From: a phage
DNA: 44,682 bases
Reading direction: 5' to 3' (one strand)
Sequence record: PX123008.1
Shown: piece after piece, positions 25,181-29,517 of the stretch
Position numbering within the stretch: position 1 is the first letter of the stretch
Layout of the letters: each line of letters starts with the position of its first letter
Position numbers and translations under genes: made by a program
The notes under the pieces: model-generated
Databases searched by the model: none
Told to the model about the DNA's origin: nothing
What the model saw: the letters and a program-made list of their open reading frames with translations, nothing else

Positions 25181-25638
25181 GTGAATTTTGCAACGTTTAT
25201 CGCGTAAATTTTCGGGACCAAATCACCACACGCCCGACGAATTGCCGCGATGTTCTTCTCGCAATCTTCAATGATGACCAGTTCCGACACGTCTGCATAG
25301 CAAACCATTTTGAACACGGCGCACGCCTTAAACTCTGGCGGCGGGGTGTCGTCCAGCATGTGGCGCATAAACAACCGGCCTGTCGGGAATACTTCCAGTT
25401 GTTCGGCGGTGGTTTCCCAGCATTCTCGCTGCCGGTTTGTCAGATACGCGATCTCGAAGCCTTGCTCTTTGTACATGCGCAACAGCGGCAGCATATCCAT
25501 GTTCAGGTCTTCGCGTACATGCGCTTTGTGCCACTTTGCCCAAAAGGTTGATTTCGTTTTTATACCCGGCACCAGGTCGGCACGCGCGTCGCTTGAACCG
25601 TTAATAACGCCATCCAGATCACAAATCAGTAGTTTCAT
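25168..25638 (-). CDS. HAD-superfamily phosphatase-like protein
   Basis: 156 aa, GAGGAG RBS; N-terminal motif ICDLDGVI (DxDG). Confidence 0.55.
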   Translation of the reverse strand: MKLLICDLDGVINGSSDARADLVPGIKTKSTFWAKWHKAHVREDLNMDMLPLLRMYKEQGFEIAYLTNRQRECWETTAEQLEVFPTGRLFMRHMLDDTPPPEFKACAVFKMVCYADVSELVIIEDCEKNIAAIRRACGDLVPKIYAINVAKFTCNQ

Positions 25639-25859
25639 TTCAACTCCTCGATAAGATTCGTACGAACAATACGGGCGGAAAACGTGTCACACACAAGATG
25701 CCAGCGGGCCGTCATTACAAGCCAGCCGGTAAGGTCCAGGCCGAGCAATTGCTCCGGGCGGCTGACCCGCCGTACTTTGTTCTCCCTCGGGTTAATTTGG
25801 TAGCGTTTAACAATTTCGTCCACGACGCGCATACTGCGGTCAACGATTAAGATATTCAT
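25635..25859 (-). CDS. hypothetical protein
   Basis: 74 aa from ATG; the track start at 25868 is GTG. Confidence 0.4.
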   Translation of the reverse strand: MNILIVDRSMRVVDEIVKRYQINPRENKVRRVSRPEQLLGLDLTGWLVMTARWHLVCDTFSARIVRTNLIEELK

Positions 25860-26325
25860 GTAACTCACTCTCGCTCATTATTTCAATTTGTGCGCTGCCG
25901 ATTGGTGGCGCTTCGTCAAAGATTATCAATTGCTGGCACTTGTTATTGCTCGGCCCGACTTCACCGGTGACGGCGTGAATGAATCTAATCCGCCAGTCCA
26001 GAAGAATTATCAGGTTTGCAGTCTTCCGGGCCAGCTTCGCCCACTTCGTCGACGTGTCCTGATTCAGTAGCATGACAGTCCGGCGACCGTGCGCTGCGCA
26101 TTCCACCCACGGCAGCGGATCGGAATACGGCGGATTGCACCACTTCCACCCTTTCAACTCTGACCAGTCCGCATCGAGCGCGCTGTGCTCTGCCGTGAAG
26201 TAACGCGGTAGAAGGTGGTTGTCATCGCTCGCCGCCATGTCATAACGGAATCGGAACTTCCGGCGCAGCGGTTTAAATAAAGCTGGCGGCGTGCGCCAGC
26301 TATCTTTTTGCTCACTCTTCTGCAT
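25840..26325 (-). CDS. DNA N6-adenine methyltransferase (phage Dam family)
   Basis: 161 aa with WRTPPALF near the N-terminus and the catalytic NPPYS motif. Confidence 0.75.
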   Translation of the reverse strand: MQKSEQKDSWRTPPALFKPLRRKFRFRYDMAASDDNHLLPRYFTAEHSALDADWSELKGWKWCNPPYSDPLPWVECAAHGRRTVMLLNQDTSTKWAKLARKTANLIILLDWRIRFIHAVTGEVGPSNNKCQQLIIFDEAPPIGSAQIEIMSESELHEYLNR

Positions 26326-26776
26326 GGTCGGTGTCTATCGCATACAGGGCGATTTTATTGCCGGTTTTGAGAATGCGTTGCACGCGCTTTGTCTCCTCAG
26401 CACTAAGCGGGCGCGCGTCCGGGTAGAAGCTGCCATTTGTAGGGTTGCGCCACGCCATAAGCACCAAATCTTTACGGTCAACCTTAGACTGGCGACACTT
26501 CGGTCGCACGTACTCCTCGGCCCGTTTGCAATGCTCACGCAGCCCGTCGGCAGTGATGCGGTTTAGTGCAACGCTGGTGGTGTATCCGGTGCGCTGCATA
26601 ATCCCCATCAATTCGAATAGCAGTTCGAAGCGCTCCTCTAGCTCCTGGCGCACTTTCTTCTCTCCTTCATATAGCGCCTTGTTGGTGTCCGCCAACGCGT
26701 TCGCGCGTTCGGCCTGTTCGCGGGCTTCGAGGCATTGCGCGGCCCAGTAGTTTTTCTCTTCTTGTAAAATTTTCAT
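26312..26776 (-). CDS. hypothetical protein
   Basis: 154 aa, GGAG RBS; downstream of the promoter at 26824..26852. Confidence 0.5.
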   Translation of the reverse strand: MKILQEEKNYWAAQCLEAREQAERANALADTNKALYEGEKKVRQELEERFELLFELMGIMQRTGYTTSVALNRITADGLREHCKRAEEYVRPKCRQSKVDRKDLVLMAWRNPTNGSFYPDARPLSAEETKRVQRILKTGNKIALYAIDTDHAEE

Positions 26777-26795
26777 CGTGTTGTCTCCAGGTATT

Positions 26796-26821
26796 AAAAA
26801 GGGCGTCCAAACCGGACACCC
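26796..26821 (-). terminator. hairpin plus U-tract overlapping the start region of the promoter at 26824..26852
   Basis: minus-strand GGGTGTCC-ggttt-GGACGCCC followed by TTTTT. Confidence 0.4.
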
Positions 26822-26823
26822 TC

Positions 26824-26852
26824 AATATAATGCAACCAATATGATTATGCAA
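26824..26852 (-). promoter_or_regulatory. sigma70-like promoter (TTGCAT-N17-TATATT) with two ATTGGTTGCAT copies
   Basis: hexamers read directly; motif copies at 26831..26840 and 26848..26857. Confidence 0.5.
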
Positions 26853-26857
26853 CCAAT

Positions 26858-27181
26858 TTACGCATAAAAGTTAGGGTCGCGCGCAACGTCCACCAAATAA
26901 AGATTGCTGATCCGGTTGCCGTAGTGGCCTGGTGTGCGCTGGCGACACACAACGGCGAAGCCTGGAGGGATTGTATTGCCCGTCTCTATAATCCACGCCA
27001 CGCGTGCGCCAGACAGCGTCTTGCCGTTGCACTCGATACGTGTTCCGCCGTCGGCAGTGTTAAGGTTGCCAATCTTGCAGCCTGTGGACTTCAGACGGAT
27101 GACGCCGGTCTTGCTGTCGTAGGAAAAAAGCTGATTGGTCATTGCCACTGAAAAGTCGATGGCGTCGAATGCAGTATTCAT
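26858..27181 (-). CDS. hypothetical protein
   Basis: 107 aa, GAGGA RBS; a loose HNH_3-like pattern (GNRISNLYLV) lacks the catalytic histidines, so left unassigned. Confidence 0.45.
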   Translation of the reverse strand: MNTAFDAIDFSVAMTNQLFSYDSKTGVIRLKSTGCKIGNLNTADGGTRIECNGKTLSGARVAWIIETGNTIPPGFAVVCRQRTPGHYGNRISNLYLVDVARDPNFYA

Positions 27182-27873
27182 TTTAAATTTTCCTCGTTAA
27201 CCGCTATCGCGAAGCCGCGCGGGGTGAGCGACCTGATTAATTTGGTGCGGGCGGATTTGCCTCCGAGGCGACTATACTGCTTCGAGTACCCTTTTTCAAC
27301 GAAAACAGGTTTCTTCTCTGGCATACGGAAGCCGTTGCCGGTCCATAAGCAGGTCAGCTTCGGATATGAATCGCGGGCGTTGATGTATTCTGGGAAGAGC
27401 GGGTGTACGTCATCCTCCGGCAGATATCCGCCATACTCCCACGGGTCAAACGAGTGGTCCGGCTTACGCCATTGATTTGATAGCACGCTGCGCGGATTCT
27501 CAATCATATACGGCACTTCAAAGAAATCACCCAGGTAAGCGGCGATCTTCGCGGTGCGCACCGCCTTAAGCTGGAAGGCTGGGTCGCGGGCGCGTTTGCG
27601 CGGGAAAGCTGGCGCACCGCTAACCGCCAGATCCGTGCACGGCGGGAATGCGTATATGATATCCGGCGTACCGAAATCACCATTCATCGCACGGTCTACA
27701 AAGTCCAGATCGATAAACTCATTGCGATACCGGATTCCGCGACCATAAATCCGGTAGTCAAGGTACGACCCGTGATCGGCTTCGGAGTAGTTAAAACAGT
27801 AGCACTTATGCCCCATCTCGGCAGCACGCTCAATCATCAAGCCGCTGCCGTCAAACAATGACCAGATTATCAT
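27178..27873 (-). CDS. DNA cytosine-5 methyltransferase-like protein (short)
   Basis: 231 aa; motif I-like LFDGSG, motif IV-like FPPCTDLAVSG and motif VI-like MIENP in the canonical order; no obvious target-recognition domain. Confidence 0.5.
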   Translation of the reverse strand: MIIWSLFDGSGLMIERAAEMGHKCYCFNYSEADHGSYLDYRIYGRGIRYRNEFIDLDFVDRAMNGDFGTPDIIYAFPPCTDLAVSGAPAFPRKRARDPAFQLKAVRTAKIAAYLGDFFEVPYMIENPRSVLSNQWRKPDHSFDPWEYGGYLPEDDVHPLFPEYINARDSYPKLTCLWTGNGFRMPEKKPVFVEKGYSKQYSRLGGKSARTKLIRSLTPRGFAIAVNEENLK

Positions 27874-29294
27874 TTGCGCGCCTTTTTAGCTTTCATGTAT
27901 TCCATCAAGTCGTCCTGGATATCTCGCTTACTGTCGCGACGCTCGGCGACCAATTCATCCAGTGTCCCACGCGCCTGGATAATGTAGACGAATACCGGAC
28001 GGGGGTGTCCTGCTTGCATCTGGCGAACCGGCCCGATACGTTCAACGATCTGCGAAAAGTGCTCAAAGTTCCAGGTATCGGAGAAGATTGCCAGGTGATG
28101 ACCGCCGTCCTGCAAGTTAAGGCCGTGGCCCGCCGATGCCGGGTGCGCAAACATGATGGGGATCTCGCCTCTGTTCCACGCTTCCATATCCTTATTGCCC
28201 TGCTTACCTTTACCCAGCGCAACGCCGTGCGGAAATTTCTTCTTGAGACGTGCCAGGTCATGTTTGTATTGGTACGCAACGAGCAACGGCGCTCCGTTCA
28301 ACTCCTCCACGATACTTTCCAGCGCGTCCAGCTTCGCGTCGTGAATCTTCACCCACTCGTCGGTCCGTTCGCCGTCTTCGTCCACCTTATACACCGCGCC
28401 GGAAGCAAGCTGAAGGCACTTAATTGTCTTCGCCGCGGCGTTCGCCGCTTCCACTGTTCCGCTTTCCAGTTCGGCAAATAGCTCGCTTTCAAACTGGTCG
28501 TAAATCTTGCGGGCTTTCTTCGGCAGGTCCACAACAACCGGCGTATAGATTGGCTTGTCGCATCCGAAGTATTCAGCCGCGTCAACGGTTAGTGATACGT
28601 CAGACAGGCGTTGTTGTATTTCTTTCTCGGAGTTCTTTAGCGGGGCGTGCTGCATCGTGAAGCTGCCAGGCTTAACAGGCTTGCTAATGAACCAGCGATC
28701 GGTGAATGCCTTATAACTACTGCCGAGTCGTTCACCACCGTCGACAAACCACGTCTGCCCCCACAGGTCTTTCAAGCCGTTTGGCGCTGGTGTGCCGGTC
28801 AGGTTAATCCAGCGCTTGACGTGTTTATGCGCAATCGCTGCCAGTGCGCGTGCGCGCTTACTGCCTTGCTTGCTTCGGTAGCCTTTCAGCTTAGTGGATT
28901 CATCGGCAACAACGACCGTAAATGGCCACGCATCGCCGTAATAGTCAACCAGCCACTCAACCACATCATAGTTAACACAAACCACGTTAGCGTCGCTCTC
29001 AAGCGCGGCTATGCGGTCTTTTTCGGATCCTGTGCCGTCTACCACCAGCAAGGCGGGGAATCGCCATTTTTCTTGCTCCGGGGGCCACGTACCGGACGCA
29101 ACGCGCAGCGGGGCCAGCACCAGTACGCGGTCCTCCAGGCTGGACAGGATACCAGTCTGGAACATTTTATTCAGCGCCCACATTGTCGCGCCGGTTTTCC
29201 CTGATCCCATTGTCGCCCAGATATTACATCGCTTATGCTTGAGGATGAACGCGGTTATCAACTTCTGATATTCGCGGCGTCGGAATCGTGCCAT
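27870..29294 (-). CDS. SNF2-family ATP-dependent helicase
   Basis: 475 aa from ATG 29294; Walker A ATMGSGKTG, motif II VVADEST, motif III LTGTPAPNGLKDLW. Confidence 0.75.
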   Translation of the reverse strand: MARFRRREYQKLITAFILKHKRCNIWATMGSGKTGATMWALNKMFQTGILSSLEDRVLVLAPLRVASGTWPPEQEKWRFPALLVVDGTGSEKDRIAALESDANVVCVNYDVVEWLVDYYGDAWPFTVVVADESTKLKGYRSKQGSKRARALAAIAHKHVKRWINLTGTPAPNGLKDLWGQTWFVDGGERLGSSYKAFTDRWFISKPVKPGSFTMQHAPLKNSEKEIQQRLSDVSLTVDAAEYFGCDKPIYTPVVVDLPKKARKIYDQFESELFAELESGTVEAANAAAKTIKCLQLASGAVYKVDEDGERTDEWVKIHDAKLDALESIVEELNGAPLLVAYQYKHDLARLKKKFPHGVALGKGKQGNKDMEAWNRGEIPIMFAHPASAGHGLNLQDGGHHLAIFSDTWNFEHFSQIVERIGPVRQMQAGHPRPVFVYIIQARGTLDELVAERRDSKRDIQDDLMEYMKAKKARK

Positions 29295-29298
29295 CTCT

Positions 29299-29517
29299 TT
29301 ATTCCGCCTTTTTCCAGACTTCGGTTTCACTGTTCCAGTTCCTTTTTGTAGCGTCGTAGTTGGTGGCGTGTCCGATGTGCACACCGGTAGCCCGGAAGCT
29401 CTTAAATTTTTGCCAGCACACCGTCAACGGCAGCGGATCATTCATGCCCGCGATAAACCATACGCGATCGCCCGGTTTACATTCGCCCAGCTTGGTGAGT
29501 CGGTAATGTTCTTTCAT
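29299..29517 (-). CDS. hypothetical protein
   Basis: 72 aa from ATG with GGGAG RBS. Confidence 0.4.
   Translation of the reverse strand: MKEHYRLTKLGECKPGDRVWFIAGMNDPLPLTVCWQKFKSFRATGVHIGHATNYDATKRNWNSETEVWKKAE

Follow-up and report, generated by a model that had tools for sequence, protein, structure and literature searches.

The 44,682-nucleotide stretch of phage DNA analysed here (sequence record PX123008.1; at its full length, the window) carries on its minus strand two genes that we regard as probably encoding stand-alone S-adenosylmethionine (SAM, or AdoMet)-dependent DNA methyltransferases, each with little beyond its catalytic domain: a Dam-type adenine enzyme acting, most likely, on GATC, and a C5-cytosine enzyme acting, probably, on CCWGG. 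The presence of the genes, their family and fold membership and the conservation of their catalytic residues are established here. The source phage is a Dhillonvirus-type coliphage whose identity to Sodalis phage SO-1, KS_S9 and the BASEL phage PaulFeyerabend is about 92–94%. Both open reading frames (ORFs) lie at the coordinates at which a sequence-only reading of this DNA had placed them, on the minus strand, and since two ORFs separate them its statement that the cytosine gene lies three genes upstream of the adenine gene holds if counted inclusively. The two genes and their catalytic motifs are as follows:

25840..26325, minus strand: gene for a Dam-type N6-adenine DNA methyltransferase of 161 amino acids (aa), essentially catalytic domain only as modelled (PF05869, NPPY).
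26125..26136, minus strand: codons of Dam catalytic motif IV, N64-P65-P66-Y67 (read from the sequence).
27178..27873, minus strand: gene for a minimal C5-cytosine DNA methyltransferase of 231 aa, called 'Dcm-like' in related records (phrog_757, motifs, fold).
27841..27855, minus strand: motif I codons F7-D8-G9-S10-G11, the AdoMet-binding loop after strand 1 (sequence, conservation).
27637..27648, minus strand: motif IV codons F76-P77-P78-C79, with C79 the predicted catalytic nucleophile (sequence, conservation).
27493..27501, minus strand: motif VI codons E125-N126-P127, ENV in canonical enzymes (sequence, conservation).

Pfam and PHROGs were searched with ten proteins, those encoded in the methyltransferase block (about 23.99–30.14 kb). 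The 231-aa protein matches phrog_757 ('DNA methyltransferase') over residues 1–229 (E=5.1e-82), and it is 99% identical to the 'Dcm-like C5 cytosine methyltransferase' of PaulFeyerabend. A large protein database holds 2870 homologues, nearly all of 225–250 aa, and a profile search retrieved representatives of 2018 clusters at 50% identity; 908 of these fell below 1e-10, and most of the representatives were 200–260 aa long. The family is present in 1511 phage records, spread over Dhillonvirus, Drexlerviridae, T-even relatives of the JSE kind (we take JSE to be of the RB49 type), myoviruses of ~135–150 kb (APECc02, PVP-SE1) and Klebsiella siphoviruses; by tblastn, the Dam family is found in 1358. 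Neither methyltransferase ORF is a chance ORF on these counts, because homologues and phage records of both are so numerous.

The motifs I, IV and VI that had been claimed for the 231-aa protein are all present, as S-L-F-D-G-S-G (residues 5–11), F-P-P-C (ending in C79) and I-E-N-P (containing E125), and their key residues do not vary: F7, S10, G11, P77, P78, C79, E125, N126 and P127 are invariant across 117 homologues, with G9 kept in 116. Motif VI of the family has Pro in the place of Val (ENP versus ENV). The elements FPPC, ENP, DaY.K.T..W and Rs.tPrGfa.Av are retained across 107 diverse representatives of the 50% clusters. The sequence-only reading had named a loss of catalytic residues on careful alignment as one outcome that would speak against methyltransferases; the homologue alignments gave the opposite result, with the catalytic residues conserved.

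A homologue of the same size is reported to be an active 5-methylcytosine (5mC) methyltransferase. Escape mutants against retron Ec86 were isolated from phage K42, a KarlJaspers strain, and every one of them was hit in a 711-bp 'dcm' gene (bioRxiv 10.1101/2023.08.16.553469). K42 Dcm together with Ec86 was toxic, whereas a C82A/E128A/K175A/K176A mutant was not; liquid chromatography coupled to mass spectrometry (LC-MS) showed that K42 Dcm, but not the quadruple mutant, raised 5mC in the Ec86 multicopy single-stranded DNA (msDNA), and Ec86 no longer defended against K42 once one or the other C of CCTGG in the msDNA stem had been changed (bioRxiv 10.1101/2023.08.16.553469). The 'Dcm-like' gene of KarlJaspers (Bas06) is itself 711 bp long with C, E, K and K at residues 82, 128, 175 and 176; in this length and in these four residues (C82, E128, K175, K176) it agrees with the K42 Dcm described for Ec86, and the K42 protein is near-identical to it. 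The Ec86 preprint has reportedly since been published as 'DNA methylation activates retron Ec86 filaments for antiphage defense', a title known from reference lists.

The 231-aa protein is 53% identical to the KarlJaspers protein (bas06_0055, 236 aa) over its full length (231 of 236 aa), and the window equivalents of K42 C82/E128/K175/K176 are C79/E125/K172/L173. The two enzymes thus share family, architecture, Cys (C82/C79), Glu (E128/E125) and Lys (K175/K172), and each is a stand-alone gene in a small siphovirus; they differ in that the KarlJaspers phage belongs to Drexlerviridae and has other neighbour genes, and in that the window protein has a Leu where K176 stands there. At position 173 the family carries various residues (K 97, T 8, L 4, E 4), K172 being invariant, and L173 was rejected as an inactivating change on the strength of this natural variation. 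The small size and missing recognition domain had led the sequence-only reading to propose a non-canonical DNA-modifying enzyme. This idea was not borne out: it is weakened because a homologue of the same size, 53% identical and with the same Cys and Glu, is reported to make 5mC.

The AlphaFold2 model of the 231-aa protein is of high quality (predicted local distance difference test score, pLDDT, 91.7; predicted template modelling score, pTM, 0.90), and Foldseek matches it to the catalytic domains of DNMT3A and DNMT3B (E~5e-7), that is, to the C5-methyltransferase fold. These are the closest solved structures, although their identity to the 231-aa protein is only 11–17% and the DNMT3 enzymes are eukaryotic, oligomeric, CpG-reading and built on domains of about 280 aa. 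Sequence searches of solved structures with the single 231-aa protein and with its family profile gave no usable match, nor did a search of solved structure chains with the Dam protein, and the relation of both enzymes to known ones is therefore visible only by fold. An hhalign comparison with an approximate M.HhaI sequence paired SLFDGSG with DLFAGLGG and P78-C79 with the PC of its motif IV, covering motifs I–IV only and at low probability.

The absence of a target-recognition domain, noticed in the sequence-only reading, is confirmed by the model. Its strands (residues 2–6, 23–28, 47–51, 72–75, 122–126, 140–142 and 174–179) are exactly those of the class I methyltransferase sheet, and these seven leave no strand for a small domain. 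From strand 7 to the motif-IX-like RSLTPRGF (214–221) there are about 34 residues (180–213) of coil and two short helices, and a variable insert of the family lies at about 155–165. All solved DNA C5-methyltransferase matches have at least 273 aa, against 231 aa here. Canonical motif VIII (QxRxR) is not recognisable in the protein, with invariant D168, Y170 and K172 preceding strand 7 at the equivalent place; R214-S-L-T-P-R219-G-F-A is invariant and resembles motif IX; and motif X, GN(A/S)V, is not seen, the chain ending after the motif-IX-like helix. A two-subunit enzyme of the M.AquI type was considered and rejected, since no neighbour ORF family common to the phage clades carrying the 231-aa gene was found that could supply a specificity subunit. 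With no separate recognition domain, the sequence would therefore have to be read from loops of the catalytic domain, and we suggest that sites are read by the loops at about 150–173 and 180–213, including the invariant D168, Y170, K172, R214 and R219.

The earlier call of a Dam-type N6-adenine methyltransferase is correct by profile, motif and fold. The 161-aa protein matches Pfam PF05869 ('Dam') at E=7.1e-37 (127.1 bits, cut-off 28.1), with residues 3–143 covering profile positions 5–152 of 169 (148/169), and it matches phrog_111 at E=7e-56. C-N-P-P-Y-S occupies residues 63–68, with NPPY at 64–67; P66, Y67, S68, D8, D90, T91, T93, W95, R112 and F115 are invariant in the homologue alignment, and N64 and P65 nearly so among homologues, the Dam-like protein of KarlJaspers (Drexlerviridae) included. 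The predicted structure fits N6-adenine methyltransferase folds. The top ten structural matches all have at least 243 aa and the shortest chain listed has 164 aa; the protein, as modelled, is essentially a bare catalytic domain.

In its NPPY motif, small size and strong Pfam match the protein resembles the PF05869/TIGR01712 Dam enzymes of Shiga toxin (Stx)-converting phages, HP1 and T1-like phages, with identities of 37% to the Dam of Stx-converting phages, about 30% to that of T1-like phages and 30% to its Dam-like counterpart in KarlJaspers. Unlike the broader family it belongs to a narrow Dhillonvirus-specific clade, its close relatives being 16 word-sharing homologues only, all of them with PF05869. 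E. coli Dam and T4 Dam (PF02086) form a separate family with another motif order and a dedicated recognition domain. PF05869 members of phages HP1, VT2/933W and T1 methylate GATC, and by analogy we infer GATC as the most likely target of the window enzyme.

We envisage that both enzymes are made from genes of the Dhillonvirus replication block. The 161-aa Dam would methylate adenine N6 by way of its NPPY motif, most likely in GATC. In the cytosine enzyme, a flipped-out cytosine would be attacked at C6 by Cys79 of motif IV and protonated at N3 by Glu125 of motif VI, whereupon the methyl group would be placed on C5; the target would probably be CCWGG at its inner C, the site reported for the K42/KarlJaspers protein with its 53% identity. 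The likely effect would be full Dam/Dcm-type methylation of fast-replicating phage DNA, with protection only against restriction enzymes whose sites overlap the GATC or CCWGG motifs. By analogy with K42, the window enzyme would likely be a trigger of retron Ec86/Eco1, and being sensed by this retron would be its cost. For the window phage we infer the recognition sequences, the anti-restriction role and this retron liability.

Sequence composition is of limited help with specificity. The window holds 172 GATC and 153 CCWGG sites, neither of them avoided (Markov ratios 0.82 and 0.97), which is compatible with self-methylation but proof of nothing. C-to-T polymorphism was assessed by aligning pieces of 16 related IMG/VR genomes and of PaulFeyerabend to the window, with matching by codon and codon position. 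The raw comparison had a strong C-to-T deficit at the inner C of CCWGG, which turned out to be largely CTG codon bias (CTG to TTG) and was mild once codon-matched. Codon-matched C-to-T was mildly raised at CpG (ratio 1.21, z about 8) and, within CCGG, at its inner C (1.33–1.46), and was reduced in CcAG and AATc contexts; mutational context, codon-pair selection or repair could account for these shifts.

Several observations weigh against this explanation of the two genes. The Dam protein narrowly misses the NCBIfam equivalog TIGR01712 (90.8 bits, cut-off 97.05). For the 231-aa protein itself Pfam (PF00145, no match at E<=1) and NCBIfam give nothing, and among its close homologues 69 of 117 reach PF00145 at E<=1, three of them passing the 22-bit cut-off, over profile positions 4–94 only (motifs I–IV). 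The grounds for CCWGG in the case of the K42 protein are its analogy to E. coli Dcm and mutations made in the msDNA hairpin rather than a methylome, and the literature yielded no methylome data for Dhillonvirus or for the 231-aa methyltransferase family. When E. coli Dcm was compared with the family by hhalign, 24 columns around motif IV only were aligned, P78-C79 falling on the PC of Dcm, at a probability below 1%, and no likeness to its recognition region was detected; because the profile comparison aligns the motif IV segment only, the 'Dcm-like' label is a statement of presumed function and not of homology in the recognition part. Recognition would have to rest on about 55 loop residues, from which a 5-bp specificity would be unusual. 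Finally, codon-matched C-to-T changes at the inner C of CCWGG show no deamination excess but a slight deficit (59 observed versus 74.9 expected, z -2.3); host Vsr repair, which works on this very context, or selection could mask such an excess.

One rival reading is that the 231-aa protein is an active C5-methyltransferase that does not recognise CCWGG but a shorter motif, or structured or single-stranded DNA such as hairpins. The model with no separate recognition domain, the failure to match E. coli Dcm in its recognition region, the unseen deamination footprint at CCWGG, and a sole tested homologue whose substrate was an msDNA hairpin would all fit, as would the closest solved folds, DNMT3A and DNMT3B, which have the smallest recognition loops and read CpG only. 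Against it, Ec86 defence against K42 was lost when either C of CCTGG in the msDNA was mutated, and an unbiased scan of 2- to 5-mer contexts for C-to-T change gave no convincing motif, the best being ATcGC (z 4.7 among about 1800 tests). On balance, we consider a target other than CCWGG unlikely. We give very little credence to transfer of a group other than methyl. Phage CmoX, which has a C5-methyltransferase fold, uses carboxy-SAM by means of an active-site Arg and is typically encoded beside phage cmoA and a ligase (PMC12783734), and E. coli makes carboxy-SAM via CmoA (PMC12783734); the 231-aa family has no canonical motif X Asn and does have an invariant Arg, R219, in its C-terminal helix. 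However, CmoX (PDB 8yf3), a DNA cytosine C5-carboxymethyltransferase, has 333 aa against the 231 aa of the window enzyme, LC-MS found more 5mC in msDNA when the K42 protein, 53% identical, was expressed, and the ten block proteins scanned (about 23.99–30.14 kb) included neither a CmoA nor a ligase neighbour. It is just as improbable that either protein, or both, has lost catalysis and survives as a remnant binding only DNA or SAM. L173 of the window protein does stand in the place of K42 K176, one of the four jointly mutated residues of the inactive control, but position 173 naturally varies among K, T, L and E with K172 invariant, no catalytic residue changes among the 117 close homologues, about 2000 cluster representatives preserve these residues, and activity is reported for a homologue of equal length.

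The biological role is a separate matter. In the passages of the BASEL study that concern restriction, Drexlerviridae methyltransferase genes have no simple link with restriction resistance, and Dhillonvirus phages are described as suffering more from restriction than do the deazaguanine-modified Queuovirinae (PMC8594841). The former observation counts against an anti-restriction role, while the latter fits narrow marks of the Dam/Dcm type rather than bulk modification. To our knowledge, EcoKI, EcoRI and the type III systems named in those BASEL passages have no site overlapping GATC or CCWGG; because the sites of these named systems do not overlap the motifs, the BASEL data are no test of an anti-restriction role, which would be plausible only against enzymes whose sites do overlap GATC or CCWGG. 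The enzymes might alternatively be active with another main role, such as a mark for replication or packaging, avoidance of MutH or Vsr, or a change in host gene expression. E. coli K-12 already has Dam and Dcm, so these marks would gain the phage little against systems native to its host; the two genes are placed near helicase, polymerase and nuclease genes within the replication block; and the BASEL observations on the related Drexlerviridae and on the comparatively restriction-sensitive Dhillonvirus, as far as those passages go, point the same way (PMC8594841). The site argument just given blunts this last point. Orphan phage methyltransferases are, moreover, classically tied to restriction evasion, and we judge that a different main role is unlikely. 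We retain, as the probable reading, two methyltransferases of the Dam/GATC and C5/probable CCWGG kind.

The 5.2-kb stretch around the two genes is matched by 161 phage records, 150 of which span at least 80% of it, mostly at 90–95% identity. Among them are Escherichia phage KS_S9, Sodalis phage SO-1 and two BASEL phages, PaulFeyerabend and Oekolampad, all belonging to Dhillonvirus or close to it. About 150 Dhillonvirus records retain both methyltransferase genes, the counterparts in PaulFeyerabend being annotated as 'Dam-like N6-adenine methyltransferase' and 'Dcm-like C5 cytosine methyltransferase'. The base-composition skews of the window flip sign near 24 kb and 36 kb, and because the minus-strand block between these switches holds DNA polymerase I, a VRR-NUC nuclease, an SNF2 helicase and a kinase/phosphatase, its earlier designation as an early block is fair, as an early/replication block. 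The elements flanking the methyltransferase genes are:

27870..29294, minus strand: SNF2-family helicase gene, 474 aa from the ATG of related records (Pfam, PHROGs).
26858..27181, minus strand: HNH-like ORF of 107 aa whose ATG overlaps the C5-methyltransferase stop (phrog_99 'HNH endonuclease', E=2.6e-16).
26794..26823, minus strand: hairpin and U5 tract, intrinsic-terminator-like (RNA fold centroid: 10-bp stem, then UUUUU).
26312..26776, minus strand: ORF of 154 aa directly upstream of Dam, with a 14-nt overlap with the Dam start (phrog_10530, E=3.4e-97).

The helicase ORF runs in full from 27870 to 29384 (27870..29384; Pfam SNF2-rel_dom, E=3.7e-11; phrog_62, E=4e-157), and its homologue in PaulFeyerabend is 1425 nt long. 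The ATG of the C5-like gene and the TGA of the helicase gene share four nucleotides (ATGA, 27870..27873), and at its other end the stop of the C5-like gene and the ATG of the gene that follows overlap likewise (27178..27181); these start/stop overlaps suggest translational coupling of the C5-like gene with its neighbours. The counterpart of the 107-aa HNH-like ORF is labelled 'putative homing endonuclease' in PaulFeyerabend, and the ORF matches Pfam HNH_3 below threshold (E=0.077, profile positions 1–21 of 46 only). It reads VVCRQRTPGHYGNRISNL at the usual place of the catalytic His in such enzymes, and may be a degenerate homing endonuclease. PHROGs labels the 154-aa ORF 'DNA ligase'; because no Pfam support for it was found and 154 aa is far below the size of a ligase, this label looks unreliable. 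The terminator-like hairpin sits in the 81-nt gap between the HNH-like and 154-aa ORFs. A consensus terminator scan did not list it, and its position weakly suggests that the two methyltransferase genes may belong to separate transcription units.

A 9-mer, TTGGTTGCA, occurs in 12 copies in the window versus 0.41 expected, a count reached by 0 of 100 shuffles:

6410, 6424, 22514, 25158, 25171, 26831, 26848, 36307, 39582, 39613, 40339, 43039: copies of TTGGTTGCA.

The copies are often paired, 13–31 nt apart, in short A/T-rich contexts, and several lie in inter-ORF gaps. One pair is palindromic (25158/25171) and another stands just upstream of the hairpin between the methyltransferase genes. TTGGTTGCA is probably a phage promoter or operator element. 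Between the Dam and phosphatase genes lies a 74-aa ORF (25635..25859, minus strand; phrog_10685, E=7.5e-46) that agrees in position and size with Ksap1, the Dhillonvirus protein sensed by the Klebsiella defence protein Avs2 (PMC11564622). It has L39 and F60 like the sensed SECphi18 Ksap1 variant, and differs from it by R at position 30.

Both genes are already known, with annotations in about 150 relatives of the phage; since the cytosine enzyme also has a tested homologue, the finding is in itself an ordinary one. The cytosine enzyme resembles E. coli Dcm and M.EcoRII-type enzymes (PF00145) in its motifs I, IV and VI, its catalytic fold and a target that, going by the K42 study, may be CCWGG; E. 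coli Dcm, at 472 aa, has an N-terminal extension and a large recognition domain that the window enzyme lacks. Tentatively, and at rather less than even odds in our estimation, the 231-aa protein and its ~2000 relatives could form a distinct class of C5-methyltransferases made of the catalytic domain only and shorter than any solved, choosing their sites through loops of that domain or by dimerisation, or in a relaxed or structure-dependent manner and not as true CCWGG, with the 161-aa Dam as the parallel on the adenine side. Both enzymes are pared to the catalytic domain, and the way in which such small proteins choose their sites could serve enzyme engineering. For the phage itself, carrying the cytosine enzyme probably makes it visible to retron Ec86/Eco1, which matters for the prediction of host range.

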